Source: Balanoglossus misakiensis (taxonomy: Eukaryota; Animalia; Hemichordata). Taken from it: a stretch of DNA of 64,000 nucleotides. Within the stretch, counting starts at the first letter, position 1. Every line of letters starts with the position of its first letter. A program made the position numbers and the translations under genes. The DNA lies in the NCBI GenBank assembly GCA_040954595.2, contig CM082583.2:3109060-3173059 (forward strand). The letters run 5' to 3'. The notes below the pieces were generated by a model. It was not told the DNA's origin and ran no database searches. It saw nothing but the letters and a program-made list of their open reading frames with translations. This document shows positions 12,890 through 36,200 of this stretch, piece by piece.

Positions 12890-13020
12890 TCAATTTCACG
12901 TTTGCTTTGGTCAAATTATATTTGTGTTCTTCAAATCTATATTTGTGTTCTTCAAATCTATATTCTTGTTCTTCAAATCCACGTTTGCCTCCGTCAAATT
13001 ACATTCTTGTTTTTCGAAGT
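12890..13020 (+). repeat. Degenerate 21-bp tandem repeat (second type)
   Basis: Unit about TTCAAATCTATATTTGTGTTC, 5-6 degenerate copies directly inside the left arm. Confidence 0.7.
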
Positions 13021-14110: not shown

Positions 14111-15810
14111 ATGAACTCAAATAACATACATTTGTCATCTCTGTACTGTCGGGGTTTAAGAGGTGATGAGAAAAGACGACAAATATTTCAGTGGTGTAGA
14201 GACCAAAAACCACATGTATTATTGCTACAAGAAACTTACTGGGACGAACAAATTCAAGATCAAATTTGCAGAGAGTGGAAAGGGAAAATGTTCCATTCTT
14301 TTGGTAATAACCACAGTTAAGGGGTTACGATTTTTGCCGATGAAAAATTGGATCATGAGATAAAGTATTCAAAAAGGGAGACAATTACTTGTATCTTTAG
14401 ATATCAATGGTGAAACATTTACTATAGTTAATATTTACGCACCAAATCAACCCAAAGAAAGGGAGCTTTTCTTTATGTCTTTGAAATGTTAGATTCAAAA
14501 ACATACGAATGGGGATGATTACGTGTTCATTGGAGATGATTTCAACACCGTTTTAGATGCGTAGGTTGATTCATTTGGAACGAAGTGTCATTCTGTTAAA
14601 TCTAAGAAACTGGACGGGATTTTGAAATCTTTTAAATTGTGTGATGTATGGCGAGAAATGAACCCTGCTAAACTACAGTTCACCTGGAGACAAGTTAACC
14701 GTGGAATTGCGAGTAGACTTGACTTTTGGTTTATTCCCCATGACTTTCTTTCTAGTGTTAACTCTGCCGATATTCGGCCGATTATTAGAACAGACCATAA
14801 TGTCATTTCCTAAAAGATTAGCCTGAAAAAATATTGTAAAGGCCCGGGATATTGGAAGCTAAATACGAGTCTACTCAAGGATGATAACTATAGAATAATA
14901 ATAAACAACGTCATAACACAAGCCATAACAAATTATCAAAAACTCTATGATTATAGAAATTTATTAGATTTAATTAAAGTGAAAGTCAAAGAAGGAAGTA
15001 TTAAATATGGAAGGGAAAAGGAAAAATATAAAAAAAGAGACAAGCAATAATTAAAGAACAGCTAAAAGAAATTGAAGATAAATTACTTAGAGATAACAGA
15101 GGAAAGGAAGACCTAATAAACATTTATGAAGACAAAAAGAGGGAACTAACTTAGCTATAAGTAAATAAACTACGTGGAATTCAAATTAGATCCAGGGTGA
15201 AGTGATACGAAGAAGGAGAAAGAAACAGTCGTTATTTCCTGGGACTAGAAAAGAAAAGGCTGATGGTTAATGATAAGTTTATTACAAAGACAGATGAGAT
15301 ATTAGCAGAAGAAAAGGCTTTTTATGAAGAACTTTATAAATCCAAAAGTGTTAATAACAGTAAAGTTAAAAAATACATAAATGACATTAAAATAGAGTCT
15401 AAGTTCAAAGCAAGTGAGGCATTAATGTGTGATGGTAAAGTTTCTGAGGAGGAATGTCTAAAAGCCATGCGCAGAATGAAAAGCAACAAAACACCAGGAC
15501 CAGATAGCATTCCTTTAGAATTTTACAGAGTGCTTTGGAAAAATATAGGTAAGACAGTAGTAGACGCTTTTAATGAAGGTTATAATAAGGGTGCGCTTGC
15601 CAATTCTCAGTGTAATGGTATCATAACGTTAATACATAAAAAGGAGTGTAGGCTTAATCTAAAAAATGGGAGGCCCATATCGCTGCGCAATCATGATTAC
15701 AAAATATTATCAAGCGTGTTAGCTAATAGATTAAATCAGGTTATACCTAAGTTGATTAGTACTGACCAAGTGGGCTATATTAAAAGACGTTTTAGTGGCC
15801 AAAACGTTCG
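14111..15810 (+). pseudogene. Decayed non-LTR retrotransposon ORF2 (L1/Tx1-type): APE endonuclease plus N-terminal part of the reverse transcriptase, 3'-truncated
   Basis: Motifs SLYCRGL, LLQET, VNIYAPN, DFN, SRLDFW, TDH, GPGYWKLN, EEGERNSRYF, KTPGPD, RPISL..DYKIL...LANRL, DQVGYIK; multiple stops and frameshifts; ends before the RT catalytic YADD motif. Confidence 0.9.
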
Positions 15811-15811
15811 G

Positions 15812-15858
15812 CTTAGTATCTCGTGCGCATGACTTAGTATCTCGTGCTCACGAGATAC
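15812..15858 (-). repeat. Internal remnant (2 units) of the 21-bp foldback repeat at the LINE breakpoint
   Basis: CTTAGTATCTCGTGCGCATGACTTAGTATCTCGTGCTCACGAGATAC matches the right-arm repeats. Confidence 0.9.
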
Positions 15859-16921
15859 TGCCTCATAGTATATTATTAGCACTGGCATTATTAACTAAAA
15901 AAGTATGAAGTTTCATACACTTTATTGCTGATGCTTGGTGATTTTCACTTTCATTATGAAAGGAAAGAAGCCATTCCTTTATATTTCAACATGGGTTTCA
16001 ACCATTGTGAAATGTTGGCTTTGAAAGCAAATATCACGATTTTATTCTGAGCTTGTGAAATTTATAGAGAATATTGTACAAGAATGGATTGCACAGACGA
16101 AAACACCAGTCAGATGCCACCGACGTTATATCATACCTAAGCTATCAACCGGTCGGCTATACATAAATACAGATGGATGAAATGTCTTCAACATGGTCCT
16201 GTAATTGTCAAAGAAAGCGCCCAGCTACTTCATCATATAGCTATCAATAAAATATGTCGTTAGCGACGTCGTAACCAGCATGTTCTTGACAAAAAATCCA
16301 AAGAAGTGACAATCCTACACTTCAAATTCTTTTGTCAGAATTAAAATAAGTTGTATTCCTGTGATTTGATACAGGAATGTATTACACATTACAAATCAAG
16401 CAAAAATCGTTTGGGGGTCTTATGATCGGAAGCGGCACTGTGATGCAGTTATTATATAGCACTGGAAGTCTAGTATATTTTGCTATTCTTAAACATTGAC
16501 GGTGGAGTGAATCATATTGTCCGGAACGCTGACGTGAATACATATGTTTCGAGTGATATTCTGCTATTTCTTGCTCCGAGAAGATTCGATGCATTGGCAA
16601 TAAGACTATGAGTATCAGATAAATTTAACTTCAATCCACAACTCTAAATTTGGCGACGTAGCCAATACCCGTTTCAGTGTTTAATAAGTGTATAACTCAA
16701 AGCAAAGCAAAATTTAGAACTATTACCCGATCTTCAAAACATTGAGATTAAATGCTCGAGACTCAGATCTGGAAAGCCCTTAGTCTGAAATTTAGCAGTG
16801 ACTTTCTGGTGACATTGAATGTGACATACATAATAATTAAACTGTCTGGCCAAGTAACCTCCCGCCCTTATCAGTTAAGCTTTGACTCCTTAGGTTCATT
16901 GCAATAACATGCGAAATTATT

Positions 16922-17129
16922 TCGTGAGCACGAGATAATTATTTCGTGAGCACGAGATAATTATCTCGTGAGCACGAGATAATTATCTCGTGCGCACGAC
17001 TTAGTATCTCGTGCTCACGACTTAGTATCTCGTGCGCACGACTTAGTATCTCGTGCGCACGACTTAGTATCTCGTGCTCACGACTTAGTATCTCGTGCTC
17101 ACGACTTAGTATCTCGTGCTCACGAGATA
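16922..17129 (-). repeat. 21-bp tandem repeat, about 10 copies (right arm of foldback element)
   Basis: Reverse complement of the 12098-12319 array. Confidence 0.95.
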
Positions 17130-18884
17130 AAACATTTTTTTTTGCTTTACGAAATGTCCCTTACGGGCTTTCATATATATGGGATTTCAAACAAAGATTA
17201 AATTAGTGATAATGCTTGACCTTGTACTATTGACAGAATGGAATGGACTTAAGCACACCAATACGTTTGGAGCAAAACGTTTGAGAACCAAACCTAGAAA
17301 TACATGTCTAAAACTTCTATTAAATGAATTAATTAAAGAATTTGTTGTTAAAATTTTGAATAGAGTGTAACTTTAGTCACGTTTGTATTAAAAGAGTGTC
17401 TCGTCTGTTTGGGTCAAAGGGAAGTTAGATAAATGTGCAGTGTAGTATTTGTATTTTTCTAGTCAACTCTTTCTAAACTACACTACATAAGACTAAGTTC
17501 ACTGCATGCGGTTTTGACGAGTCAGCCCGCGAGAGCGCCCTCTCGCGGCAAATAGTCCACTTTAAGTGTACGGATACCTTAGCAGAACTGTACACAGTAA
17601 GCGGTAACGGTCACTTTTTCAGGAATTAAATGACAAGAAACTGTCAAATGTCTCTGAGTCTAAGAACAGCTGTACTTCGGAAAGATTTGTATCTCTAGAA
17701 AATTTCATCAAATTTCAGATTTGTCAATCTTCAGTACTGCAGTCATGCGTAGACATCACATTCTCACTGAGAATATCTTAAAGCAATCACTTTACACTGA
17801 ACAAATTATCTGAAGGAAGCGCGCGAGTTTCAGGGAATCTCGGGGTCTCTGCCAGACTAAATACCTCCCGTTCTCTACATCCTCACCGTTTTGTCCTCCA
17901 ATTCTCTGTCTGCTCTGATGTCTTTGTCTGTCCGTATGTTCCTTTATACTAGTATAAGGTATTGTTAGAAAATGAAACCTGTCAGCATTGTATTCATTTC
18001 GGTCTGATTCGAGTATTATACTGATAGCGATTCAAATTCACAATAAAACCGATAATGGATTTTTTATTTTCATTTTGACGCCTTCAAATTCCCTTGCATT
18101 GACAAAACTATACAATAATACCAAATGTAGAAACATCAGTATAACCAATTTTACAGCTGATAACCAATAACAGTATACACATGTTGACTGGCCATGAGGC
18201 ATCAGCATACGTCTGTAACCCGAGGGACTGTGAGTCACCTCCAAAAACGGACGGTTTACTAACTCGAGGGACCCCTCAAATACACCATTTCAGCCGTATA
18301 TGGGTGTATGTAAATTGGCGGTGACCGTACACCTTTAATGTCTAGGGGTGCACCACACATTCAATGTAGTTTCAACTAAATCTGGCCATCTAGTCAAAAA
18401 ATGACAAAATCAAATTGATTAATCACACTTTAAAAAGTGAACATCAATAAACATGGGCTACCGGGCTTTAATTCACGTTCAATCATGTCTGTTATGCTTC
18501 ACGAATGTGATCACTCTGTGAGCGCTGTATGCCGTGAGCCACAGACACCCACCATTTGAAAACGCTCCAGTAACTTTTGCTGGAATTTGGTCGACTTAAG
18601 TCAATCTCTATTGCATGCTATTTGGATTATTTTATTGAATCGTTGAAAGTTATTATTTTTGTCAATTTTTACCAATAAACATGTGCTGTTCGAAATTGCT
18701 TCAGGAACTTTTTTTTTAATTTGCAGAAAAATTAATCGGGTAAATATCATTTGTTTGCTATTTAGATTCCATGATTGAATCATTGCAAGTGCTGTTTTGG
18801 GGGCATTTTTATAAGTATATGTTCTGCGCATGCGCGTTAGCAAGGGGTTTAGTCGAGTCGATGTGATCACCGGCCCGCCATCTT

Positions 18885-19237: not shown

Positions 19238-22200
19238 TAAGTATCATGCCAATCAAATTTGAGTGAAGTGTAGAGTCAACCTTTACGTCAACATTAACCA
19301 GGCCACAGTGCACAGTATCATGCCCATCTACCAAAATTTAAGTGGTGTGTAGAGTCAACATTTGCGTCAACATTAACCAGGTCACAGTGGACAGTATCAT
19401 GCCCATCTACAAAATTTTAAGTGTTGTGTAGAGTCAACCTTTGTGTCAACATTAACCAGGCCACAGTGCACAGTATCATGCCCATCTACCAAAATTTAAG
19501 TGTTGTGTAGAGTCAACCTTTGCGTCAACATTAACCAGGCCATAGTGCACAGTATCATGCCCATCTACCAAAATTTAAGTGGTGTGTACAGTCAACCTTT
19601 GCGTCAACATTAACCAGGCCATAGTGCACAGTATCATGCCCATCTACCAAAATTTAGGCGGTGTGTACAGTCAACCTTTGCGTCAACATCAACCATGCCA
19701 TAGTGCACAGTATCATGCCCATCTACCAAAATTTAAGTGGTGTGTACAGTCAACCTTTGCGTCAACATTAACCAGGCCATAGTGCACAGTATCATGCCCA
19801 TCTACCAAAATTTAAGTGGTGTGTAGAGTCAACCTTTGCGTCAACATTAACAAGGCCATAGTGGCCATCTACCAAAATTAAAGTGGTGTGTAGAGTCAAC
19901 GTTTGCGTCAACATTAACAAGGCCATAGTGGCCATCTACCAAAATTTAAGTGGTGTGTAGAGTCAACCTTTGCGTCAACATTAACCAGGCCATAGTGCAC
20001 AGTATCATGCCCATCTACCAAAAATTAAGTGGTGTGTAGAGTCAACCTTTGCGTCAACATTAACCAGGCCACAGTGCACAGTATCATGCCCATCTACCAA
20101 AATTTAAGTGTTGTGTAGAGTCAACCTTTGCGTCAACATTAACCAGGCAATAGTGCACAGTATCATGCCCATCTACCAAAATTTAAGTGGTGTGTAGAGT
20201 CAACCTTTGCGTCAACATTAACCAGGCCATAGTGCACAGTATCATGCCCATCTACCCAAATTAAAGTGGTATGAAGAGTCAACGTTTGCGTCAACATTAA
20301 CCAGGCCATAGTGCACAGTATCATGCCCATCTACCCAAATTAAAGTGGTGTGTAGAGTCAACGTTTGCGTCAACATTAATCAGGCCACAGTGGACAGTAT
20401 CATGCCCATCTACCAAAATTTAAGTGGTGTGTAGAGTCAACGTTTGCGTCAACATTAACAAGGCCATAGTGGCCATCTACCCAAATTAAAGTGGTATGTA
20501 GAGTCAACGTTTGCGTCAACATTAACAAGGCCATAGTGGCCTTCTACCAAAATTTAAGTGGTGTGTAGAGTCAACGTTTGCGTCAACATTAACAAGGCCA
20601 TAGTGGCCATCTACCAAAATTTAAGTGGTGTGTAGAGTCAACCTTTGCGTAAACATTAACCAGGCCACAGTGGACAGTATCATGCCCATCTACCAAAATT
20701 TAAGTGGTGTGTAGAGTCAACGTTTGCGTCAACATTAACAAGGCCATAGTGGCCATCTACCAAAATTTAAGTGGTGTGTATAGTCAACCTTTGCGTCAAC
20801 ATTAACAAGGCCATAGTGGCCATCTACCAAAATTTAAGTGGTGTGTAGAGTCAACCTTTGCGTCAACATTAACCAGGCCACAGTGGACAGTATCATGCCC
20901 ATCTACCAAAATTAAAGTGGTGTGTAGAGTCAACCTTTGCGTCAACATTAACAAGGCCATAGTGGCCATCTACCAAAATTTAAGTGGTGTGTAGAGTCAA
21001 CCTTTGCGTCAACATTAACCAGGCCATAGTGCACAGTATCATGCCCATCCACCAAAAATTAAGTGGTGTGTAGAGTCAACCTTTGCGTCAACATTAACCA
21101 GGCCACAGTGCACAGTATCATGCCCATCTACCAAAATTTAAGTGTTGTGTAGAGTCAACCTTTGCGTCAACATTAACCAGGCAATAGTGCTCAGTATCAT
21201 GCCCATCTACCAAAATTTAAGTGGTGTGTAGAGTCAACCTTTGCGTCAACATTAACCAGGCCATAGTGCACAGTATCATGCCCATCTACCCAAATTAAAG
21301 TGGTATGAAGAGTCAACGTTTGCGTCAACATTAACCAGGCCATAGTGCACAGTATCATGCCCATCTACCCAAATTAAAGTGGTGTGTAGAGTCAACGTTT
21401 GCGTCAACATTAACCAGGCCACAGTGGACAGTATCATGCCCATCTACCAAAATTTAAGTGGTGTGTAGAGTCAACGTTTGCGTCAACATTAACAAGGCCA
21501 TAGTGGCCATCTACCCAAATTAAAGTGGTATGTAGAGTCAACGTTTGCGTCAACATTAACAAGGCCATAGTGGCCTTCTACCAAAATTTAAGTGGTGTGT
21601 AGAGTCAACGTTTGCGTCAACATTAACAAGGCCATAGTGGCCATCTACCAAAATTTAAGTGGTGTGTAGAGTCAACCTTTGCGTAAACATTAACCAGGCC
21701 ACAGTGGACAGTATCATGCCCATCTACCAAAATTTAAGTGGTGTGTAGAGTCAACGTTTGCGTCAACATTAACAAGGCCATAGTGGCCATCTACCAAAAT
21801 TTAAGTGGTGTGTATAGTCAACCTTTGCAGTCCGAACGCAGGTCAGCCATTTGACCGTTAATTGCCCAGTTTTCTAGTTCTGGTGACGCCCTCAACGTTC
21901 TGTCGTACACGTAACCGGAAGTGGCATGCGAAAGTCCCGCGCTTTTTTTAATGCCAAGTTTAACAAGCAAGGACCGCAGTTCAATGATTCAAATTGATAA
22001 AATGGCCAAAATTATATCTAAATTACACATCTGTGTGGTTTTTTGGTGGAAAAACATGTTTTCTTTGCAAAAATGACCGAATTACAGAGTGACCCCAGAA
22101 CAACTAAAATCAAAACATGCCGCACTTCCGGGTTTTTTCGAACTGCCGCACTTTTATATAAAAAGGAATTTTTAAATTTAAATATGATTTTCAGTGAATT

Positions 22201-22858
22201 TGATATATTTTGCAATAAAATTAAAAAAATCATGATGCAACCCCCAGAAGCCTTTGCTCAAGCGCTCCTCGTAAATTCGCCCCGATGTGACGCAATAGCC
22301 TCAGATTGGCGGTATACTTGGTCCGGTTACCAGCGTTGAATCGTCGCTCTGCAATCATCCAATCTTGCATTGCACGATGGCTCGTAATTGACCACTTTTT
22401 TCGCTGTATTTTAGCGTATAAGTATTTTTTCCTCTCTTTCTATCCTTCTTGTATTCCTCTCTTTCTATCTCTGTTTTATGAAAACGTGCCGTACGTTTGT
22501 TGCGAGAGTAGAATAGAGGTGCTTGGCGCGCGCGCTTGTCTCGACTGTCATAGCCGGTCAGTCTACGGACTGTCTACGGTTATGGGGACATTGGCACTAG
22601 TATTTGTGGTCGGTTTATACTTTTTGTTCGTTTCACGGAGTTTTTGTTACTCTGGTTGGATTATTGGAGGTTGGTTTTGTTTTGGCGGCAATAATTGTCA
22701 TTGGCGCGCTTTGTCGATTTGGAAGGTTGTAGTCTACAGATCGTGGACGGTCAGACTGGTCTAGTCTTTCGTTGTTGGTGTTATTATTATATTATAGTTC
22801 GACTGTGTTTTAAGGGATTTAGTCCAATCAGTCGGTGTTGTCATTGTCTGGTTGCAGT

Positions 22859-25800
22859 ATGGGGTTAGGCAGCCTCATCAGTTGTGTTGGCCGTCAAGCT
22901 AGCAATTTTGCTATGCATTTGTCAAGTGTCCATAAACAGACAGTTTCTCGAACTAACAGAAACAAATTTAGAATTTCTGTGTTAACTGCAAACAACACCT
23001 GGCAAAATCTTGTCAGCAAACATAACTGCAGTCCTGCTATTTCATTTGGCACTGTGCTCAAGGTTTTAAAACATAAATTGCAGGGTGCCAATCCATGGCG
23101 ACATCCTGAAACATGTACAGAGTACAATGAATTTGATTTTTTATGTGGTTATGTATTGATGATATATATATCCTCAGTTTTCCTTGCCCATGAGATACTT
23201 GTTAAAAAAAAGTTCCCATTTCATGTCACATTGCCAGATCAGTCTGTTGTCTCGTACATATGTGCTTCACCACTGATACCATCATCTGTTATTACAAACT
23301 ATATACTAGAGAAAGTGGGAATCCCATGCACTGCATATAAATTGATTGCTAATGGGAAACCCATTGTCGAGAGGTCGATACTTGACCATACTGTTCATAG
23401 TAGTCTGTCTCTAAATATAACTGGGTTTGGGGGAGGGAAAAAATCTGGTGATTTAGTACATCCAGGTAAATCATGTGGCCCATGTGTTGTCTGTGGTAGT
23501 GATTCAAAGACCAGATATTATCATTTATGTTGCAAAGAAAATGACAACATGGTTCAACACATAATTGTTAATTACAAAACAAGATTGAACGAGCCTTTAT
23601 CCAAAAGTGATTGCATATGTAGCAGTTGTGACAGGAAAATGATTAGGAAGTTCAATTCACCTGTTGATGTGAGTCAATCAAAGCGCTCAAAAACAAGTAC
23701 ATCACAGTGTACTCTGAGCAAATTCAATTTATGTACAGCAAAGGCAGATCACGATGGTGCTCCCATTGCAACTTATGAACAACTGTTCTCTATGCTCAAA
23801 GTAGCAGCAAACTTTGAAGGCCTGCCAAAAGATATGCCATTATGCCACCACCATTACTGTGAAATCAACAATTTTGTGAAGGGCAAGGTTCCAGTGCCAT
23901 GTAGCATTTGTTCGGTGCTAATTCCAGCCAAACAAAGAAAGTATAAGATAAATGATCCAGACGTAATCATGAAATTTATTAAACACATTAAGATTGATGT
24001 TGACTTTGTCAGGAAGGATGATATTATTTGTGGTGCATGCAGTACGGCTTGTTCAAAGTACATTAGGACAGAATTTGGAGTTGACAGGGTAAAAGCAGCA
24101 TCAAAAGTATTCATGCGATCACTGTGTGAAGGTTACAAAGATGTAACATGCTGTGGTGAAAATTCTATTGAAGAATTTGCATTGGCATCGGCAATTTTAT
24201 TTGTGTGCAAAGAGTTTGAAGAGGATCGGGCAGTTTTTCTTTCATCTGCATATAGTGTTTACTTGAAAGTACTGCAAAGAAATACTGCCAAGTATGGAAC
24301 ATCTGATAATTATGAGTCAATGAAAAAGAATAGGAAATGGCTGATGGTAAAACTTCAGGGAGTATTTGGAGATTGTATGGTTTCCCATTCAAATCCTATG
24401 TACAAAAGGTTGGGGACATTACTAAGGAGGTGTGGGTCTTCACTGGAGGACTGCATGCTTTTCACTCTGTCTGCTGCAAAAAGCAAAATGGAAAATTTAG
24501 AAAAACAAATAAATTCTCTAGACGAACTGAACAAGTCACTGCTTGCAGATATGCCCTCTCATGACGTTAATGCACATCTTCGTGTGGCTGGCGAGTTTCT
24601 GAAATCTAAAGTCTGTGAAATGACAGAGAAGTTAATGTCAAAACAAAGTAAAGATGAGTTTGACATCACGACAATGTGTTTAAGTGACTTTGTTTCACAA
24701 GACATTGATCCATATCTGTGGAATTTTATTTTCAAGCTAACCATGACTCAAACTGAACAGGCTGATTTCTTTCAAAATGAAATTGACACGTTTGACTGGA
24801 AGGAATGTTATACTCTAAATATTAATGACAAAACGCAGAATTATCACCTTGGTCGTTTAATGAAGCGTTTATATATTGTCTCATGCATTATATATGCTAA
24901 CAATGCAGAGTGTAATTATCCATTGCATATGGCATTGGCTGATGTTGTCGACAAATTCAGTAATTCATCTTCTGAATGTTTGAAAATTTTGAACAGATTT
25001 GGTGCTGTGTCGTCCAAAGACAGCTTACAGCGATATAAGGTTGGCATATCTGAGAAAACAATGCTAGAAGGCCCGAAGATTAGTAATGAAACTTTCACTA
25101 CTGTCTCTGTTGACAACGTGGACAAACTGAGTTCGTATGCAACAGTCAAATCCAGCCAATTAGGGAGGGGATTTAATGGAACGTCTGTTCAGGCGGTAGA
25201 GAGTAAACCATCCCTGTCTCTTACTGATGAAGACTTTCCACCTTTCCGCAGACAATCATTGAAAACAAAAGCTGGAGAGTATCTTAAAGTTGTTGCAGTC
25301 AGCCATGATAATTCATTGTTAAGAGCAATTACAGCTCACAGCATTTGCTCACTGAGACACTGCAGTCGTGATGAAGTTGGAAAACCCACCTCAGTTGAGC
25401 TACTTGCACAAGAGAACAACTTAATGGCTAAAATCAGAAATGAACTCGTAGATTGTCTGGAACAAAACAGAGAACACATTGAACAACTTGACCCAACTAT
25501 GTATGATTCTTTTCTGCTTAAAGGTGACTCTCCTGATAAATATATTGACTTTGATCATAGATGTGTGGAAGTAAGGAATGGTGCTACTTGTGGTGTTCCT
25601 GAAATAATAGCTCTGTGTTACAGCACTGCCCAAGCTGTTGTCATATATAGAGAGGATAATGGTCAATATACTGAAATCTGCAAATATGGAGCTGGTTGTT
25701 TTCCAGATTCCCAGCCAATTCAACTCTTGCTTTCACATCATCAAGGTAATGAATATTACCAATTACTAATGAGTGAAAGCTTATATTATGATGAGCAATC

Positions 25801-28800
25801 ATATCTTACTGTGGAAAGCACACTTTCTCACTGGCAACGAATAAACTTGCACAATGAGCGTGATTTTTCATTCAGTGAACTGTTGTGTCCCCCTGAATCA
25901 TTTGTACAGAACAAAGTTGCACTCAAATCTTCCCGGCGAACAATTGCGCCAGTAATGATTGAAAATTATTACAGTACATTGTCGGGTATGGATGATGAAA
26001 GTGGACGTAATGCCAGTAATGAAAGTCTGTCTTTGGAGGATTTCAAAGTTACACCTGTAGAGAAAGCCGAATACAAAAAGCTTCAGTCTGACTGCTTTGT
26101 GTACATACTTGAAAAAAATGCCATACAAAATGATGATCCTGCTAGGTACATTTCCAGTTTGAAAGAAAGAATGTCAATGTTCACAACAGAAGAGACCGAA
26201 GTTTCGAATATTGTTTATTTGGATGTGCTTGACCTGCCAGCTGACAATATAGAAACCATGAAAGCTGTTCTGAATAAACTATATACCCAGTTTGGTGTTG
26301 GCAAGTACATTAATTATCTGGTGGTAGTCGGAGATGGCAAAACCTATGACTACTTACTAAAATTAAAGAAACAATATGGATTAGATTTGGCATGGTTACT
26401 ACCTTACCCTGGAGACTGGCACATTCTTAAAACCTTCCAAGCTGTGTTAATGAAAATATATCTAGATGCTGGGTTGAAGGAACTTGTCACTCTTTTCCAT
26501 TTTGGAAAAACTGCTTCATCAGTAATGCAAGCTACCAACTTTGACAGGACCCACCGATTTTTACTGCAAGTATGGGAAGCAATATACAGAGTGGAAATCG
26601 ATAAATTCATGAAATACAGGTGTGGTGATCAGCAATCATGCATGCTATCTGAAAAAGATATATATGAAGCATGCATTGAAAACCTGCAAAGAGAGCCTGA
26701 TCATTTTGATTTGCTGGATGATACAGCAGGCTTTGCAGAAATTAGAGAATCACTCAAAGAAAAACTATCTGGCTTTGAGGCAGAGTTTGACAGCTTTACG
26801 CAGAACTGCATGGCAAAAAACAGCACCTGGAAATTTTGGCATGATTTCATTCACAGGGACATGATGACATATATTGCACTGTACATATCTATGAGAAATA
26901 GAAATTTCAATTTGCGTAATGCAGCTCTCAAGGAAATGACACCACTGTTTCACAGTTTTGACAGGTTGAATTACCTGAGGCTTGTACCTCAGCATCTTGC
27001 GGATTTAAAATGCTTCCCTCCATCTGTTGTCAATTATCTTTACAGTGGGGGTTTTGCTGTCAGTCTGTCTGGTAGAAAGTGGAAATGTGTTGCCCTGGAC
27101 GAATGTCATGAAATGTGCATCAATAAAGATGTGAAAGAAGCCATGCACTCCACACAAAGAGAAGCACTTTCCAGGCTCACTTTCTATCTTCCCCACAGGG
27201 CATTGCTTCACAAAAATATCAAGAAGCAAATATTTAATGATGCAAGTATGTCATCATCTCATGAGTCACTCTCTGAAAGGAAGCATACAGAAATGAACAT
27301 CAGAGCATATATAGACAAATTAGTAGGATCAAATATACTTTTTGATCCTTCATCTTGTGGCACTGACTGTCTTAGTCATCTGTTTTCCAATAAAACACTC
27401 AATGGTAAGGATGCACATGATTTATTGACATTCAGGACTGTGGGAGAAAAATCTATGAATGATTACATCTCATGTGTGATTTTATTTAATCCCCAGTCAA
27501 AATTGCCTCCACGACACCGTAAAAACTTGAAGACTTTCACAGTAAAGCAACCTAATGTAGCAAAACAAAAGCTGCAAGTGAAAGACCAAAAACTGGTTAA
27601 TCATATCCTACGGAAAAAAATAGCATATTCTAAGGCTACAGGTGTTCCCATTGATGATCTGAGTCAGTTTATTCAGCTTCCTAGGGCCATTGCTGCAGTG
27701 GATGGTTTGCCTGAAAAGGGACAAAAGGCAAGTGTGGGTAAAGTACTGAAAGGCAGATACCCATCTGCCTTTCATTCTGAATTGCCCCGAAGTTTCACAC
27801 CAGAATGTGTGGTGTTGGAGGGTATGTTTCTTATCAATACAACACCGTTAGCATTCCATCAGACATTTCATGACTATGTTTCCTTCCTATGTAGAAGATG
27901 GGTAAAGCCATATTTCTGTAAACTCAATGCTAGTGAGGTGCATATTGTTTTTGACGATCCTCAAAGACATGGATCAAGTCCAAAGGATATAGAAAGAACA
28001 AGACGAGACACTGGAAAAGAAGAGACAGTAGTGTTTGATACTCTCACTTTACAGCAGCCTTTACCTACAAATTGGAGGAAGTTTTTAGGGGTCAGACAAC
28101 ATAAAAGACTTCTTGTCAATCTTCTGAGTGATGCTATGTTAAAATACTCGAAAACATATCTATCAGGTAACCAGAAGCTTGTTACTGCAGGAGGTTTTGA
28201 TGGTGAGCAAAGAGACACAGCACAACAGATAACTGCTCATAATGGTGCATCAGACAGTCCAATGTACTATTCCAATCATGAAGAGAGTGACTCAAGGGTA
28301 TGGTACCATGCTCTGAAATCATGCTTTCAAAACATTCTGATCTATTCCCCAGATACAGATGTTTACCATATTGGTCTACCTTTCCTAGAGGGAAATGCTA
28401 AAAATGTATTCATACAGTTACGCTCAGTGCCATTTGATAATGTCTTTCTTTCCATGTCTACATTGATTGAGTGTATGAAACATGATCTATCACTAAGCTC
28501 TCTAACGTCCAGTAAGCTTGCCAACATATTTCAAACTCTATTCATATGTACTGGGTGTGACTACATTTCATTCTTTAGAGGCTGTGGGAAAAAAGCCTTT
28601 CTAGATGTGTTTTTCAAGGAAGCATCATTTATAACTGGTACTGAAAATGAGTCCACAGTTGGAACACTGAATGCAGATAAAGAGTCTAAAGACTTGGGTC
28701 TCTTGGCCTTTTATCGGCTGATAGGGTGTGTGTACTACTACAAACATTCATCAGCATTTCCAGGGTATGGAGGGCCACATGAACATTTCAATTCACTCAT

Positions 28801-29455
28801 CAGTGGGACAAGAACACCACTTCAGGTTCATCATGAATGGCTTGATGACATCAGGAACAGAATATGGGACAGGATTGACAGTGAGGTCGGATTTGTACCA
28901 TCAAACGAGGCCTTAAAATATCACTGGTACAGGTCATGTTGGGTATCATGTTTGTGGGGAAATGCTGATAAAAAGGATGTCAGTATACATGTACCTGCAA
29001 TAACAGATTTTGGGTGGAAACTTGTTGAAGGCAAAATAAGTATTGTGTGGGATTCTAATGAAAATCTGGAAAAAGTAAAGAAAAATGTTGAGTTTTGGAC
29101 TAATGGATGCAAATGCAAAAAGTCCAAATGTACAAACAAATTGTGCAAATGCGTGAAATCAGGGAACATTTGTGGACCAGGTTGTAAATGTTTACACTGT
29201 GAAAACACACCAAATCAACCAAACTCGGCAACTGCCTTATCCCCTGAATATGTAACAGCCTTGGAGGAGGCAGAAGATGATGACGACAATTATGAGCAAA
29301 GTCTTTTGAGGGATATTGAAGAAATATTGGTGGATGAAGACACTGAGTCAGTCATTGACAATACGGAGGCAGTAGCTTTACCAGAGTCTGTCACTGATCT
29401 GGTGGAATGTGGGGGCATCCACAGTGACATAGATGGAAATATTGATGAAGACTAA
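22859..29455 (+). CDS. Academ-type transposase-XPG fusion protein with ubiquitin-like, Cys-rich, OTU-like and C-terminal Cys8/CXC domains (frame open from 22835, first ATG at 22859, true start uncertain)
   Basis: Uninterrupted 2206-codon frame. Transposase motifs SVDNVD (D760), VVGDGKTY (D1167), PGDWH, LDECHE (E1426). XPG/FEN-like motifs VVLEGM, HIVFD, NHEESDSR, SPDTDV, GCDYISFFRGCGKK. Tail CKCKKSKCTNKLCKCVKSGNICGPGCKCLHC followed by an acidic C-terminus. Numbering is from 22835. Confidence 0.92.
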   Translation: MGLGSLISCVGRQASNFAMHLSSVHKQTVSRTNRNKFRISVLTANNTWQNLVSKHNCSPAISFGTVLKVLKHKLQGANPWRHPETCTEYNEFDFLCGYVLMIYISSVFLAHEILVKKKFPFHVTLPDQSVVSYICASPLIPSSVITNYILEKVGIPCTAYKLIANGKPIVERSILDHTVHSSLSLNITGFGGGKKSGDLVHPGKSCGPCVVCGSDSKTRYYHLCCKENDNMVQHIIVNYKTRLNEPLSKSDCICSSCDRKMIRKFNSPVDVSQSKRSKTSTSQCTLSKFNLCTAKADHDGAPIATYEQLFSMLKVAANFEGLPKDMPLCHHHYCEINNFVKGKVPVPCSICSVLIPAKQRKYKINDPDVIMKFIKHIKIDVDFVRKDDIICGACSTACSKYIRTEFGVDRVKAASKVFMRSLCEGYKDVTCCGENSIEEFALASAILFVCKEFEEDRAVFLSSAYSVYLKVLQRNTAKYGTSDNYESMKKNRKWLMVKLQGVFGDCMVSHSNPMYKRLGTLLRRCGSSLEDCMLFTLSAAKSKMENLEKQINSLDELNKSLLADMPSHDVNAHLRVAGEFLKSKVCEMTEKLMSKQSKDEFDITTMCLSDFVSQDIDPYLWNFIFKLTMTQTEQADFFQNEIDTFDWKECYTLNINDKTQNYHLGRLMKRLYIVSCIIYANNAECNYPLHMALADVVDKFSNSSSECLKILNRFGAVSSKDSLQRYKVGISEKTMLEGPKISNETFTTVSVDNVDKLSSYATVKSSQLGRGFNGTSVQAVESKPSLSLTDEDFPPFRRQSLKTKAGEYLKVVAVSHDNSLLRAITAHSICSLRHCSRDEVGKPTSVELLAQENNLMAKIRNELVDCLEQNREHIEQLDPTMYDSFLLKGDSPDKYIDFDHRCVEVRNGATCGVPEIIALCYSTAQAVVIYREDNGQYTEICKYGAGCFPDSQPIQLLLSHHQGNEYYQLLMSESLYYDEQSYLTVESTLSHWQRINLHNERDFSFSELLCPPESFVQNKVALKSSRRTIAPVMIENYYSTLSGMDDESGRNASNESLSLEDFKVTPVEKAEYKKLQSDCFVYILEKNAIQNDDPARYISSLKERMSMFTTEETEVSNIVYLDVLDLPADNIETMKAVLNKLYTQFGVGKYINYLVVVGDGKTYDYLLKLKKQYGLDLAWLLPYPGDWHILKTFQAVLMKIYLDAGLKELVTLFHFGKTASSVMQATNFDRTHRFLLQVWEAIYRVEIDKFMKYRCGDQQSCMLSEKDIYEACIENLQREPDHFDLLDDTAGFAEIRESLKEKLSGFEAEFDSFTQNCMAKNSTWKFWHDFIHRDMMTYIALYISMRNRNFNLRNAALKEMTPLFHSFDRLNYLRLVPQHLADLKCFPPSVVNYLYSGGFAVSLSGRKWKCVALDECHEMCINKDVKEAMHSTQREALSRLTFYLPHRALLHKNIKKQIFNDASMSSSHESLSERKHTEMNIRAYIDKLVGSNILFDPSSCGTDCLSHLFSNKTLNGKDAHDLLTFRTVGEKSMNDYISCVILFNPQSKLPPRHRKNLKTFTVKQPNVAKQKLQVKDQKLVNHILRKKIAYSKATGVPIDDLSQFIQLPRAIAAVDGLPEKGQKASVGKVLKGRYPSAFHSELPRSFTPECVVLEGMFLINTTPLAFHQTFHDYVSFLCRRWVKPYFCKLNASEVHIVFDDPQRHGSSPKDIERTRRDTGKEETVVFDTLTLQQPLPTNWRKFLGVRQHKRLLVNLLSDAMLKYSKTYLSGNQKLVTAGGFDGEQRDTAQQITAHNGASDSPMYYSNHEESDSRVWYHALKSCFQNILIYSPDTDVYHIGLPFLEGNAKNVFIQLRSVPFDNVFLSMSTLIECMKHDLSLSSLTSSKLANIFQTLFICTGCDYISFFRGCGKKAFLDVFFKEASFITGTENESTVGTLNADKESKDLGLLAFYRLIGCVYYYKHSSAFPGYGGPHEHFNSLISGTRTPLQVHHEWLDDIRNRIWDRIDSEVGFVPSNEALKYHWYRSCWVSCLWGNADKKDVSIHVPAITDFGWKLVEGKISIVWDSNENLEKVKKNVEFWTNGCKCKKSKCTNKLCKCVKSGNICGPGCKCLHCENTPNQPNSATALSPEYVTALEEAEDDDDNYEQSLLRDIEEILVDEDTESVIDNTEAVALPESVTDLVECGGIHSDIDGNIDED

Positions 29456-29725
29456 ATGACAAAACAGAGCTTATATCTTTTTTTACATTCATTATCTGAT
29501 TGAAGACGTCACAAATGGGGGACAAGTGCACATTGTAATATCAGCAATAATGCACTGAAAATTGACTAATCGTAGAAACATGTCTGTGGGAACAAAGTAA
29601 TACAACGTTTTACAGCCAGATATAGAAATTTAATTATTTTAATCAAAAATATTCTAACAGAAGCCATATTGTGTACACTGGTACCATGACTACGCCAGTC
29701 GCGTTCACATAATTAAGACGAGACA

Positions 29726-30258
29726 GGTTCACAAGAAAGTGCAGCACTTTTTTATAATACGTTCTTAACACTTCAAATTTCACCCAGGGTTAGTCTGATA
29801 AATAATCTAACTTGTGATGTGAAAATTCTCGTGCAACCTTTAGGATTTTTTGAGATACGGGTGGGTAAACTTGAAAAATGTTACAATAATACACGTTCAC
29901 AGGAAAGGGAAGGGTTCACAAGAAAGTGCAGCACTTTTTTATAATACGTTCTTAACACTTCAAATTTCACCCAGGGTTAGTCTGATAAATAATCTAACTT
30001 GTGATGTGAAAATTCTCGTGCAACCTTTAGGATTTTTTGAGATACGGGTGGGTAAACTTGAAAAACGTTACAATAATACGCGTTCATAGGAAAGTGAAGG
30101 GTTCACAAGAAAGTGCAGCACTTTTTTATAAAACGCCCGTCACACTTCAAATTTCGCCCAGCGTTAGACTTATAAATTACCTAACTTGCTACGTAAAAAT
30201 TATCGTGCAACCTTCAAGATTTTTTGAGATACGGGTCGGTAAACTTGAAAAACGTCAA
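29726..30258 (+). repeat. Three direct repeats with about 187-bp period in the 3' subterminal region of the Academ element
   Basis: GGTTCACAAGAAAGTGCAGCACTTTTTTATAA recurs at about 29726, 29913 and 30100; the third copy is more diverged. Confidence 0.95.
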
Positions 30259-33200
30259 AATACCTCAGCTTTTCATCCAAGGTCGATCGCTGGGAAAAAC
30301 GTCTACAGTCCAATCCTATCGTGCTAAAGACGCGATAATCTGGCAACATGTCCGTATGGTTCTTGTTATATCAATAGTGTTGTCATTTCAAGGTAAAAAC
30401 TCTCGAATCGGACAAAATCGCCCGTGTTTTCCGAAGGTTAGCGCAACAACATAAATAAGTGTCCATTTTGAAAATAGTCACGTGACTTTTTCCAATAAAC
30501 GCCCTCATCGTCGGGTGGTTGCGTTCGGGCTGTTGCGTCAACATTAACAAGGCCATAGTGGCCATCTACCAAAATTTAAGTGGTGTGTAGAGTCAACCTT
30601 TGCGTCAACATTAACAGACCATAGCGGCCATCTACCAAAATTAAGTGTTGTGTAGAGTCAACCTTTGCGTCAACATTAACCAGGCCACAGTGGACAGTAT
30701 CATACCCATCTACCAAAATTAAAGTGGTGTGTAGAGTCAACCTTTGCGTCAACATTAACAAGGCCATAGTGCACAGTATCATGCCCATCTACCAAAAATT
30801 AAGTGGTGTGTAGAGTCAACCTTTGCGTCAACATTAACCAGGCCACAGTGCACAGTATCATGCCCATCTACCAAAATTTAAGTGGTGTGTAGAGTCAACG
30901 TTTGCGTCAACATTAACAAGGCCATAGTGGCCATCTACCCAAATTAAAGTGGTATGTAGAGTCAACGTTTGCGTCAACATTAACAAGGCCATAGTGGCCT
31001 TCTACCAAAATTTAAGTGGTGTGTAGAGTCAACGTTTGCGTCAACATTAACAAGGCCATAGTGGCCATCTACCAAAATTTAAGTGGTGTGTAGAGTCAAC
31101 CTTTGCGTAAACATTAACCAGGCCACAGTGGACAGTATCATGCCCATCTACCAAAATTTAAGTGGTGTGTAGAGTCAACGTTTGCGTCAACATTAACAAG
31201 GCCATAGTGGCCATCTACCAAAATTTAAGTGGTGTGTATAGTCAACCTTTGCGTCAACATTAACAAGGCCATAGTGGCCATCTACCAAAATTTAAGTGGT
31301 GTGTAGAGTCAACCTTTGCGTCAACATTAACAGACCATAGCGGCCATCTACCAAAATTAAGTGTTGTGTAGAGTCAACCTTTGCGTCAACATTAACCAGG
31401 CCACAGTGGACAGTATCATACCCATCTACCAAAATTAAAGTGGTGTGTAGAGTCAACCTTTGCGTCAACATTAACAAGGCCATAGTGGCGATCTACCCAA
31501 ATTAAAGTGGTGTGTAGAGTCAACGTTTGCGTAAACATTAACCAGGCCACAGTGGACAGTATCATGCCCATCTACCAAAATTTAAGTGGTGTGTAGAGTC
31601 AACGTTTGCGTCAACATTAACAAGGCCATAGTGGCCATCTACCAAAATTTAAGTGGTGTGTAGAGTCAACGTTTGCGTCAACATTAACAAGGCCATAGTG
31701 GCCATCTACCAAAATTTAAGTGGTGTGTATAGTCAACCTTTGCGTCAACATTAACAAGGCCATAGTGGCCATCTACCAAAATTTAAGTGGTGTGTAGAGT
31801 CAACCTTTGCGTCAACATTAACAGACCATAGCGGCCATCTACCAAAATTAAGTGTTGTGTTGAGTCAACCTTTGCGTCAACATTAACCAGGCCACAGTGG
31901 ACAGTATCATGCCCATCTACCAAAATTAAAGTGGTGTGTAGAGTCAACCTTTGCGTCAACATTAACAAGGCCATAGCGGCCATCTACCAAAATTTAAGTG
32001 TTGTGTGGAGTCAACCATTGCGTCAACATTAACCAGGCCACAGTGCACAGTATCATGCCCATCTACCAAAATTTAAGTGTTGTGTAGAGTCAACCTTTGC
32101 GTCAACATTAACCAGGCCACAGTGCACAGTATCATGCCCATCTACCAAAATTTAACTGGTGTGTAGAGTCAACCATTGCGTCAACATTAACCAGGCCACA
32201 GTGCACAGTATCATGCCCATCTACCAAAATTTAAGTGTTGTGTAGAGTCAACCATTGCGTCAACATTAACCAGGCCACAGTGCACAGTATCATGCCCATC
32301 TACCAAAATTTAACTGGTGTGTAGAGTCAACCTTTGCGTCAACATTAACCAGGCCACACTGCACAGTATCATGCCCATCTACCAAAATTTAAGTGTTGTG
32401 TAGAGTCAACCATTGCGTCAACATTAACCAGGCCACAGTGCACAGTATCATGCCCATCTACCAAAATTAAGTGTTGTGTAGAGTCAACCTTTGCGTCAAC
32501 ATTAACCAGGCCACAGTGCACAGTATCATGCCCATCTACCAAAATTTAAGTGTTGTGTAGAGTCAACGTTTGCGTCAACATTAACCAGGCCACAGTGCAC
32601 AGTATCATGCCCATCTACCAAAATTTAAGTGTTGTGTAGAGTCAACGTTTGCGTCAACATTAACCAGGCCACACTGCACAGTATCATGCCCATCTACCAA
32701 AATTTAAGTGTTGTGTAGAGTCAACCATTGCGTCAACATTAACCAGGCCACAGTGCACAGTATCATGCCCATCTACCAAAATTTAAGTGTTGTGTAGAGT
32801 CAACGTTTGCGTCAACATTAACCAGGCCACAGTGCACAGTATCATGCCCATCTACCAAAATTTAAGTGTTGTGTAGAGTCAACCTTTGCGTCAACATTAA
32901 CCAGGCCACAGTGCACAGTATCATGCCCATCTACCAAAATTTAAGTGTTGTGTAGAGTCAACGTTTGCGTCAACATTAACCAGGCCACAGTGCACAGTAT
33001 CATGCCCATCTACCAAAATTTAAGTGTTGTGTAGAGTCAACGTTTGCGTCAACATTAACCAGGCCACACTGCACAGTATCATGCCCATCTACCAAAATTT
33101 AAGTGTTGTGTAGAGTCAACCATTGCGTCAACATTAACCAGGCCACAGTGCACAGTATCATGCCCATCTACCAAAATTAAGTGTTGTGTAGAGTCAACCT

Positions 33201-36200
33201 TTGCGTCAACATTAACCAGGCCACAGTGCACAGTATCATGCCCATCTACCAAAATTAAGTGTTGTGTAGAGTCAACCTTTGCGTCAACATTAACCAGGCC
33301 ACAGTGCACAGTATCATGCCCATCTACCAAAATTTAAGTGTTGTGTAGAGTCAACCATTGCGTCAACATTAACCAGGCCACACTGCACAGTATCATGCCC
33401 ATCTACCAAAATTTAAGTGTTGTGTAGAGTCAACCATTGCGTCAACATTAACCAGGCCACAGTGCACAGTATCATGCCCATCTACCAAAATTAAGTGTTG
33501 TGTAGAGTCAACCTTTGCGTCAACATTAACCAGGCCACAGTGCACAGTATCATGCCCATCTACCAAAATTTAAGTGGTGTGTAGAGTCAACCTTTGCGTC
33601 AAAATTAACCAGGCCATAGTGCACAGTATCATGCCCATCTACCAAAATTAAGTGTTGTGTAGAGTCAACCATTGCGTCAACATTAACCAGGCCACAGTGC
33701 ACAGTATCATGCCCATCTACCAAAATTTAAGTGGTGTGTAGAGTCAACCTTTGCGTCAACATTAACAAGGCCATAGTGGCGATCTACCCAAATTAAAGTG
33801 GTGTGTAGAGTCAACGTTTGCGTCAACATTAACCAGGCCACAGTGGACACTATCATGCTCATCTACCAAAATTTAAGTGGTGTGTAGAGTCAACCTTTGC
33901 GTCAACATTAACAAGGCCATAGTGGCCATCTACCCAAATTAAAGTGGTATGTAGAGTCAACGTTTGCGTCAACATTAACAAGGCCATAGTGGCCATCTAC
34001 CAAAATTTAAGTGGTGTGTAGAGTCAACGTTTGCGTCAACATTAACAAGGCCATAGTGGCCATCTACCAAAATTTAAGTGGTGTGTAGAGTTAACCTTTG
34101 CGTCAACATTAACCAGGCCACAGTGGAAAGTATCATGCCCATCTACCAAAATTTAAGTGGTGTGTAGAGTCAACGTTTGCGTCAACATTAACAAGGCCAT
34201 AGTGGCCATCTACCAAAATTTAAGTGGTGTGTAGAGTAAACGTTTGTGTCAACATTAACAAGGCCATAGTGGCCATCTACCAATATTTAAGTGGTGTGTA
34301 GAGTCAACCTTTGCGTCAACATTAACCAGGCCACAGTGGACAGTATCATGCCCATCTACCAAAATTAAGTGTTGTGTAGAGTCAACCTTTGCGTCAACAT
34401 TAACCAGGCCACAGTGCACAGTATCATGCCCATCTACCAAAATTTAAGTGTTGTGTAGATTCAACGTTTGCGTCAACATTAACCAGGCCACAGTGCACAG
34501 TATCATGCCCATCTACCAAAATTTAAGTGTTGTGTAGAGTCAACGTTTGCGTCAACATTAACCAGGCCACAGTGCACAGTATCATGCCCATCTACCAAAA
34601 TTTAAGTGTTGTGTAGAGTCAACCTTTGCGTCAACATTAACCAGGCCACAGTGCACAGTATCATGCCCATCTACCAAAATTTAAGTGTTGTGTAGAGTCA
34701 ACGTTTGCGTCAACATTAACCAGGCCACAGTGCACAGTATCATGCCCATCTACCAAAATTTAAGTGTTGTGTAGAGTCAACCTTTGCGTCAACATTAACC
34801 AGGCCACAGTGCACAGTATCATGCCCATCTACCAAAATTTAAGTGTTGTGTAGAGTCAACGTTTGCGTCAACATTAACCAGGCCACAGTGCACAGTATCA
34901 TGCCCATCTACCAAAATTTAAGTGTTGTGTAGAGTCAACGTTTGCGTCAACATTAACCAGGCCACAGTGCACAGTATCATGCCCATCTACCAAAATTTAA
35001 GTGTTGTGTAGAGTCAACCTTTGCGTCAACATTAACCAGGCCACACTGCACAGTATCATGCCCATCTACCAAAATTTAAGTGTTGTGTAGAGTCAACGTT
35101 TGCGTCAACATTAACCAGGCCACAGTGCACAGTATCATGCCCATCTACCAAAATTTAAGTGTTGTGTAGAGTCAACCTTTGCGTCAACATTAACCAGGCC
35201 ACAGTGCACAGTATCATGCCCATCTACCAAAATTTAAGTGTTGTGTAGAGTCAACGTTTGCGTCAACATTAACCAGGCCACAGTGCACAGTATCATGCCC
35301 ATCTACCAAAATTTAAGTGTTGTGTAGAGTCAACGTTTGCGTCAACATTAACCAGGCCACACTGCACAGTATCATGCCCATCTACCAAAATTTAAGTGTT
35401 GTGTAGAGTCAACCATTGCGTCAACATTAACCAGGCCACAGTGCACAGTATCATGCCCATCTACCAAAATTAAGTGTTGTGTAGAGTCAACCTTTGCGTC
35501 AACATTAACCAGGCCACAGTGCACAGTATCATGCCCATCTACCAAAATTAAGTGTTGTGTAGAGTCAACCTTTGCGTCAACATTAACCAGGCCACAGTGC
35601 ACAGTATCATGCCCATCTACCAAAATTTAAGTGTTGTGTAGAGTCAACCATTGCGTCAACATTAACCAGGCCACACTGCACAGTATCATGCCCATCTACC
35701 AAAATTTAAGTGTTGTGTAGAGTCAACCATTGCGTCAACATTAACCAGGCCACAGTGCACAGTATCATGCCCATCTACCAAAATTAAGTGTTGTGTAGAG
35801 TCAACCTTTGCGTCAACATTAACCAGGCCACAGTGCACAGTATCATGCCCATCTACCAAAATTTAAGTGGTGTGTAGAGTCAACCTTTGCGTCAAAATTA
35901 ACCAGGCCATAGTGCACAGTATCATGCCCATCTACCAAAATTAAGTGTTGTGTAGAGTCAACCATTGCGTCAACATTAACCAGGCCACAGTGCACAGTAT
36001 CATGCCCATCTACCAAAATTTAAGTGGTGTGTAGAGTCAACCTTTGCGTCAACATTAACAAGGCCATAGTGGCGATCTACCCAAATTAAAGTGGTGTGTA
36101 GAGTCAACGTTTGCGTCAACATTAACCAGGCCACAGTGGACACTATCATGCTCATCTACCAAAATTTAAGTGGTGTGTAGAGTCAACCTTTGCGTCAACA

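Follow-up and report, generated by a model that had tools for sequence, protein, structure and literature searches.

An OTU-fold domain lacking its catalytic residues within the predicted core of an Academ-type transposase of Balanoglossus misakiensis

Why a transposase should carry, between its own likely catalytic aspartates, a deubiquitinase fold from which the catalytic residues have gone is the question raised by a stretch of DNA from the hemichordate Balanoglossus misakiensis (GenBank assembly GCA_040954595.2, contig CM082583.2, positions 3,109,060 to 3,173,059 of the forward strand). This whole stretch of 64,000 nucleotides is called the window, and positions are counted from its first letter. 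It holds an Academ-type element (21828-30532, 8705 bp, CAG..CTG ends) with an unbroken transposase open reading frame (ORF; 22859-29455, forward strand, as are all coding features below), and inside that ORF lies the domain in question, at 25280-25774 (amino acids (aa) 820-984). OTU domains with the catalytic Cys and His are called intact here, and those without either are called dead. A sequence-only reading of the DNA had proposed an inactive OTU-like domain, inserted in one element and possibly serving as a non-catalytic reader of ubiquitin or a ubiquitin-like domain (UBL). The analysis that followed upheld the fold and the missing residues, replaced the picture of a peculiarity of one element with that of an old trait of a whole clade, and did not bear out the reader role. 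The reading favored here, as probable though well short of settled, is that the dead OTU is a vestigial pseudo-deubiquitinase, kept because it must stay folded inside the predicted catalytic core.

The OTU motifs quoted in the sequence-only reading do translate in frame from 25280, and that start was retained, with the end extended from 25771 to about 25774. Alone against Pfam and PDB sequences, the segment finds no OTU, and the intact relative P0109 likewise finds none among PDB sequences. Lectin matches of the segment proved to be sums of short repeats with no single significant stretch and were discarded. A profile made from 13 relatives of the Cys/His type alone, six of them above the Pfam OTU cut-off (P0005, P0015, P0020, P0028, P0045 and P0109), scores the segment at 77.3 bits (E 6.7e-26), as against 7.5 bits for the best of 1000 shuffles (829 reported) and 5.4 for the reversed segment. 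Homology to OTU (PF02338) is thus indicated indirectly, by way of the profile of relatives, and the segment alone aligns to an Owenia protein that is itself positive for the Pfam OTU domain (E 5e-8). The family profile gives only weak OTU matches in the PDB (E 0.011-0.04). In word-based searches of longer proteins, whose negatives are weak ones, the segment found nothing and the family profile found a Helitron OTU protein as its sole match (E 3.3e-4).

The predicted structure points the same way. From the single sequence, the ESM Atlas places the segment in OTU clusters at 0.93, and AlphaFold on the single sequence gave a failed model, with a predicted local distance difference test score (pLDDT) of 33. 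With a 28-row alignment the model reached a pLDDT of 92.5 and a predicted template modelling score of 0.88; this alignment included intact OTUs, which may bias the model, so that model and profile do not count as independent results. Structures were compared by Foldseek with re-alignment of its 622 top chains. Foldseek returned 35 matches to the model at E ≤ 1e-3, and all among the matches listed are OTU-family structures; VIA-align then put it on OTUD3 with a Z of 13.4 and a root-mean-square deviation (rmsd) of 2.7 Å over 131 residues. The closest folds are OTUD3 (4bou), OTUD1 (4bop), OTUD5/DUBA (3tmp) and yeast Otu2 (7pl7), with Z 12.8-13.4 and rmsd 2.5-2.9 Å over ~130 residues; the window domain differs from this subfamily in its sequence (16-21% identity), in lacking the Cys and His, and in a family-specific insertion after the first helix. 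Model, structure alignment and ESM Atlas therefore all predict an OTU/papain-like fold. The objection that this is ordinary, variable transposase sequence, with an OTU likeness produced by the folding alignment, can draw on the missing Pfam and PDB matches of the segment alone and on the poor single-sequence model. It is effectively refuted, and its chance of being right negligible, because the intact-only profile and the single-sequence ESM features both indicate OTU and because the segment is missing as a block from 23 relatives with short spacing between the first two aspartates. On sequence profile and predicted structure together, the segment 25280-25774 is an OTU-fold domain.

Its position in the protein, in frame between two conserved motifs, was read directly from the sequence and is that given in the sequence-only reading. 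Upstream stands D764 of a DNVD motif (25112-25114), the likely first catalytic aspartate, invariant in all 18 rows covering it; downstream stands D1171 of GDGKTY (26333-26335), the likely second, invariant in 20 of 20 rows. With E1430 of a D-E-x-H-E motif (27098-27112, invariant in 18 of 18 rows), the likely third catalytic residue, they form a conserved acidic triad of DDE type with a presumed catalytic role. Alignment to OTU-less relatives confirmed that a block is absent from them, longer than the domain itself and with ragged edges, reaching roughly from aa 806 to 1005-1035; it begins just past a conserved strand, whose K-P end is near aa 800, and stops before a basic patch near aa 1035. 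From the order of the motifs, and from the analogy with RAG1 that we take as the basis for placing it, the insert likely sits in an RNase H-like fold, in the loop that joins strands two and three, and the site marks a loop that tolerates a folded insert of 165-200 residues.

Neither the catalytic Cys of the D-G-x-C loop nor the catalytic His is present. As the sequence-only reading had noted, the Cys position (Cys in 12 of 12 intact rows) is occupied by a serine, Ser831, encoded by TCA at 25313-25315, and the same replacement is seen in 10 of the 12 dead rows; in the alignment, the loop before Ser831 has one residue fewer than its D-G-x-C counterpart in intact relatives. The His position had been given as Glu/Tyr at 25751-25756, of which the alignments bear out Tyr978 (25754-25756) and not the Glu at 25751; it is His in 14 of 14 intact rows and in none of 10 dead ones. 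Throughout the dead rows the Cys loop varies in length and sequence, and the His column has no consensus. To judge from these missing residues, the domain is presumably catalytically inactive. It is very improbable that Ser831 acts as the nucleophile of a surviving enzyme with a relocated base: the frequency of serine in the dead rows speaks for such an enzyme, but no conserved His is found anywhere in these rows, and the place of Ser831 in the model, at the first position of helix 1, is explained by helix capping, a function that serine can serve there.

The dead rows retain the hydrophobic core, the Ser that opens helix 1, and R849, G853 and E864 of the family-specific insertion after the first helix (25367-25414), which is kept in intact and dead forms; each of the three residues is found in 12 of 12 dead rows, and in 14/14, 13/14 and 15/15 intact rows, respectively. 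The Y-A-G-x-x-E motif (25586-25603), which we take from OTU structures to be the part that holds the ubiquitin tail, is degenerate. Its aromatic residue is present in 12 of 14 intact rows and lost in all 10 dead rows covering the position, where the window copy has Thr922; its Gly is lost in 9 of 11 dead rows and its Glu retained in 7 of 12. The ubiquitin-binding groove of the window copy thus lacks the aromatic and has the Gly and Glu, and across the dead clade it is not conserved. Since the dead rows keep the core and the Arg/Gly/Glu set and lose the Cys loop, the His and the aromatic, it would appear that the fold has been held in place and the ubiquitin-binding face has not.

The domain can be understood only among its relatives. 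One search gave 12 proteins and another the best 150 of 204, for a total of 162 (P-numbered here; L-numbered loci are from raw DNA). Both aspartate motifs were located by pattern in 41: 23 have a spacing of 160-302 and no OTU match, 17 have an OTU match and a spacing of 330-468 (206 in one partial gene model), and one, with a spacing of 520 and no OTU match, was left out. The insert profile matches 37 of the 162 proteins, namely 17 of intact type, 19 dead ones including the window copy, and P0121. Relatives that retain both Cys and His do exist, as 12 of the intact type show the two residues and the other five are fragments showing one; for P0109, P0140 and P0155, no transposase context was seen. 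None of the 19 dead members, nine of which are from Mytilus or near-copies thereof, has either residue. With the intact-only profile the most eroded of them reach 6-16 bits, in some cases less than the best shuffle, and they were called homologous by position and joint alignment. Intact OTUs occur in Owenia (annelid), Amphiura and Patiria (echinoderms; UniRef automatically labels a Patiria protein "OTU domain-containing") and Branchiostoma (lancelet), dead ones in Ptychodera (hemichordate), Mytilus (mussels) and the window element, and OTU-less forms in Antedon, among others; the named relatives are marine invertebrates.

When raw DNA was scanned with core motifs only, 55 loci came out, 37 of them too short, broken or unmatched, and the 18 usable ones (16 found by pattern and two by eye) show the same range. 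L016 and L020 have an intact OTU and L001 and L002 a clear dead one, while L023 has only a faint, nearly erased remnant (9.7 bits) in an unbroken ORF of 1986 codons, with the equivalents of R849, G853 and E864 lost. There is no OTU in nine copies of the L004 family, L032 and L033 (by pattern) or in L003 and L005 (by eye), and the OTU-less ORFs of L003, L005 and L007 are unspliced. The L004 family has eight full copies that are 99.7-99.9% identical, six of them flanked by 4-bp target duplications, and by sequence it appears young and a candidate active transposon; its near-identical copies with duplications imply that such transposases work without an OTU. These copies (L004, L006, L007 and L010-L014; about 3295-9700 in L007) also start with CAGTCC, like the window element, and have long inner inverted repeats. 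What the alignments describe is one family trait with three states at one site: Cys and His intact, both lost, or the domain absent.

The history of these states was approached through trees. A core tree was built without the OTU columns from 44 rows, which are the 48 of 59 labelled proteins that passed a length filter, less four Mytilus near-copies. All nine dead rows fall in one 17-row clade (SH-aLRT 99) together with eight OTU-less rows and no intact one, and the 12 intact rows fall in another clade with three OTU-less rows; the nearest relatives of the window element in this tree are OTU-less. A 36-row tree that included raw-DNA ORFs, under a simpler model, gave an 18-row clade (98) of nine dead and nine OTU-less rows, with L023 inside the dead clade, and a tree of the upstream core plus OTU, which kept the catalytic columns, split 12 dead from 16 intact rows on a single branch (98). 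A tree that forces the dead rows into one clade of their own was rejected (approximately unbiased test, p-AU 1.2e-4), which means that OTU-less lineages are interleaved with dead ones, and one that forces all OTU-bearing rows together was rejected with a p-AU of 1e-75. As the OTU lies at the same site and has the same family-specific insertion throughout, these sequences are most simply explained by a single gain, a single loss of catalysis, and deletion several times over.

The dead and intact forms differ in how well the domain is conserved. Core identity is 0.46 in 45 intact pairs and 0.45 in 21 dead pairs, and OTU identity is 0.35 versus 0.19; the ratio of OTU to core tree distance is correspondingly 1.33 in intact and 2.5 in dead forms. 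When nine regions are compared, the OTU is the one that falls most in the dead clade (0.20 versus 0.32 in intact forms); the linker after it stands at 0.16 (dead) versus 0.18 (intact), similarity of the core regions is the same in both clades, and that of the zinc fingers and UBL tends, if at all, to be higher in the dead one. In the dead pair L001 and L002, nonsynonymous (dN) and synonymous (dS) divergence are 0.30 and 0.82 for the OTU, 0.10 and 0.70 for the core, and 0.28 and 0.39 for the linker, giving a dN/dS of ~0.37 for the OTU and 0.15 for the core, with an OTU dN that resembles that of the next linker. The proportion of nonsynonymous differences in the OTU (pN) was nonetheless below the synonymous one (pS) in 300 of 300 bootstraps, which suggests from this one pair that the dead OTU remains under purifying selection.

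These figures bear directly on the proposal of the sequence-only reading, that the domain is a reader of ubiquitin or a UBL. Such a reader might anchor the transposase on chromatin or repair proteins that carry ubiquitin, or bind the UBL of its own protein. The retained OTU fold accords with such a role, as do a Cys-to-Ser replacement that resembles a trapping change, the Gly and Glu left in the Y-A-G-x-x-E motif of the window copy, and the presence in the same protein of a likely UBL with a di-glycine end (23204-23437, aa 128-205). Ubiquitin, however, is nearly invariant, so that a surface binding it should be conserved, and in the dead clade conservation of the domain halves, the aromatic and mostly the Gly are gone, and neither the Cys loop nor the His column holds a pattern. 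The UBL itself is also indifferent to the state of the OTU. It aligns with 10 other proteins, every one ending in GG at the same place, of which seven have a dead OTU, one an intact one (P0022) and two none (P0030 and P0122); counted by rows, it accompanies a dead OTU in eight. The reader role must therefore be rated as distinctly unlikely. A complex prediction of the dead OTU with the element's own UBL scored 0.00, and as it was run without alignments and with the partner fold uncertain, it is evidence neither way.

The UBL is itself a lead rather than a certainty, as the window copy has no Pfam match, the ESM Atlas gives ubiquitin clusters at only 0.87-0.89, and the relatives P0010 and L016 have weak ubiquitin-family matches. 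Its conserved di-glycine end is a possible cleavage site for a host protease. Self-processing by the element's own OTU was considered and is ruled out for the window copy, in which the catalytic residues are lost, and the UBL persists in proteins without an OTU; any cleavage in the window element would presumably need a host enzyme.

A second alternative dispenses with ubiquitin altogether and sees in the dead domain a repurposed, non-catalytic contact module that would touch another transposase subunit, DNA or a host protein through the Arg/Gly/Glu insertion. The invariance of R849, G853 and E864 in the dead rows, the persistence of purifying selection, and the long retention of the domain across hemichordate, mussel and other lineages all favor it, and there is a precedent in the human pseudo-OTU FAM105A, which according to PMC7862380 lacks ubiquitin binding and is believed to act through protein contacts. 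R849, G853 and E864 are, however, no less well kept in intact forms and in the three OTU domains of P0121, which is not a transposase, and this fits an internal structural role; L023 has lost all three, and the nearest relatives of the window element in the core tree do without the domain. A contact role is thus possible but, on balance, unlikely. A broader version, in which a captured deubiquitinase became in this clade a module without catalysis whose reading of ubiquitin or of a partner protein beside the active site would steer or gate transposition, with the sister clade keeping the enzyme, may be entertained as a minority view; if true, it would make of this family a natural series of enzyme, pseudo-enzyme and deletion at one site.

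The vestigial reading, which we prefer, can be set out as four steps. An ancestral element would have captured a working deubiquitinase once at the insert site, a site that the intact relatives share, and by analogy with the proteases of Helitrons and Ginger1 the captured OTU would have removed ubiquitin from the transposase or from proteins that work with it. Catalysis would then have been lost once and long ago, as every dead form belongs to a single transposase clade, in which there is no intact one. From that point, stops, frameshifts or misfolding within the loop would kill the transposase, so that selection would keep the fold and not the substrate site; this is suggested because the dead OTU changes about twice as fast relative to the core and yet retains its hydrophobic core and the Arg/Gly/Glu set. 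A clean in-frame deletion, lastly, would be tolerated and be the usual end state, given that several lineages have no OTU and one OTU-less family has fresh copies.

Several observations weigh against this account. The dN/dS value comes from a single pair on a different branch of the dead clade than the window copy. The identity of the dead OTU, 0.20, is also that of the UBL, so that low identity is no proof of functionlessness. The dead domain has persisted through ~0.6 changes per site of the conserved core on its branch, a long time for a useless domain of 165 residues where deletion is possible, and the window copy, with the Gly and Glu of its Y-A-G-x-x-E motif in place, is the least eroded of the dead forms, at 77 bits versus 57 or less for the others. 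The L004 family lies outside the dead clade, so that its fresh copies speak for OTU-less transposases in general and not for a lineage that deleted a dead OTU; for some of the proteins counted as OTU-less, the sequence is a gene model, and an OTU could be concealed by splicing. P0041 and P0155, fragments with one catalytic residue visible, branch beside the dead clade, which leaves room for more than one loss of catalysis, and with unrooted trees the order of gain, loss and deletion is an inferred one.

OTU domains on transposases and pseudo-OTUs are both already known, and what is unusual here is the position in the core and the three-state series. Ginger1 transposases carry OTU or Ulp1 domains, for which a ubiquitin-pathway role in transposition was proposed by Bao, Kapitonov and Jurka in 2010 (PMC2836005); they resemble the window element as cut-and-paste transposases fused to an OTU and differ in that theirs is a C-terminal addition to an integrase-like enzyme, whereas here the OTU splits the core and is dead clade-wide. 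Helitrons and Helentrons carry OTU and VTD deubiquitinases, some with catalytically dead derivatives, as seen in the inactive VTDs of insects (PMC9741609). Those elements, however, are of the rolling-circle type and the inactive VTDs sit in host genes, not within an unbroken transposase, and the Helitron OTU is a good match to the C-terminal half only of the Academ OTU profile. FAM105A/OTULINL has an OTU fold with a broken triad and is reported to lack activity and ubiquitin binding (PMC7862380, PMC3705208); it belongs to the larger OTULIN type, is encoded by a host gene and has a membrane-targeting motif, and it serves as an analogy and not as a shown relative. The literature search, which did not cover Kojima 2020 or Repbase, came upon neither an OTU in Academ, nor one between catalytic aspartates, nor a dead clade; the one paper matching Academ, transposase and OTU names OTU only as a general filter domain, and PMC10318531 does not mention transposons.

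Deubiquitinase domains ride on several classes of transposon, and guesses at what they do there go back to 2010 (PMC2836005). According to PMC9741609, transposon OTU domains had not been assayed for activity. The present family offers intact, dead and deleted versions, and the three states at one site are natural controls for what a transposon gains from a deubiquitinase. The intact relatives in Owenia, Patiria, Amphiura and Branchiostoma are probably the more useful, being candidate active OTU enzymes between catalytic aspartates.

The rest of the element is in keeping with the AcademX type. The transposase ORF, open from 22823 with its first ATG at 22859 (2210 codons from stop to stop, to 29455), is the sole long ORF of the window, and between the element ends there is no further ORF of at least 150 aa except one upstream frame of 157 codons. 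Pfam recognizes DUF6589 at aa 1066-1470 and a Cys-rich TCR/CXC domain of the tesmin/TSO1-like kind at aa 2094-2129 (29102-29209, E 8.9e-7), whose family profile matches LIN54 (5fd3, E 8.8e-4). A Cys/His-rich region at 23459-24040 (aa 213-406), likely zinc fingers by its conserved Cys and His columns, has no match in the Pfam scan. At 27800-28567 lies a likely nuclease domain with conserved acidic columns (D1711, E1821, D1823, D1844, D1846 and D1913), which we presume to be of the XPG/PIN type; the window copy gives no significant Pfam or PDB profile match there, and one relative matches 5_3_exonuc_N at E 0.096. In a 20-protein alignment, the window copy deviates at three of the columns that are at least 85% conserved, none of them acidic, and it has the cysteines typical of the family along with the D-E-x-H-E motif and the acidic residues named above. 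Related transposases carry other cargo, with an N-terminal NADAR in P0122 and, below cut-off, in P0004, and a GDSL/SGNH domain in P0006; a precomputed PF04843 label on P0014 was not reproduced by the Pfam scan. P0121 (1502 aa) has a Mab-21 C-terminal match and, within aa 803-1397, three tandem OTU domains of Academ type, of which one has both Cys and His, another just the Cys and the third neither, and is possibly a host gene that took its OTU from these elements.

The ends of the element are a 13-bp terminal inverted repeat starting with CAG (21828-21840, forward strand), at the first base of which one high-depth contig exactly begins, and its counterpart at 30520-30532 on the reverse strand, identical at 12 of 13 bases by sequence comparison. 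They are flanked by TTG target-site duplications at 21825-21827, within one unit of a 79-bp satellite with arrays on both sides, and at 30533-30535, after which the satellite resumes in register. Terminal repeats of 13 bp with one mismatch and a 3-bp duplication conform to the AcademX pattern of inverted repeats with 3- or 4-bp duplications, as opposed to 9 or 10 bp in AcademH, given in the parts of PMC10045372 that were seen. Like AcademX, the window element has no second long ORF for a helicase, and its one protein carries DUF6589 and CXC along with what may be a nuclease domain; unlike it, the protein has a protease-fold domain inside the DDE core, and those parts of PMC10045372 do not mention OTU. 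The Academ name is given on the basis of architecture, DUF6589 and duplication length.

Reads from two DNA runs of one sample were also consulted. Contigs over the OTU region show no differences, at a depth of ~23 in X1 versus ~30-34 on long flank contigs, and at the ends of the element (21828-22300 and 29827-30532) depth rises to between several hundred and thousands, with many diverged contigs. This suggests a low-copy full element and many non-autonomous derivatives that share its ends, with the proviso that contig depth is no copy number. Between the transposase ORF and the right end, a 187-bp unit is repeated 2.9 times (29726-30262). The satellite of 79/67-bp units that the element interrupts is an array of more than 20 kb (19255-21827 and 30533-48229), with inverted blocks near 40541-42488.

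Elsewhere in the window, an open frame of 166 codons at 60444-60944 gave no significant match in the Pfam scan. A second element occupies 12042-17175, with long inverted arms (about 12043-12889 and 16337-17180) that contain 21-bp sub-repeats, and a 208-codon frame inside it (15206-15832) has a partial reverse-transcriptase match (E 3.7e-6). Contigs of both runs skip exactly the stretch 12042-17175, and an empty site for this second element therefore exists.

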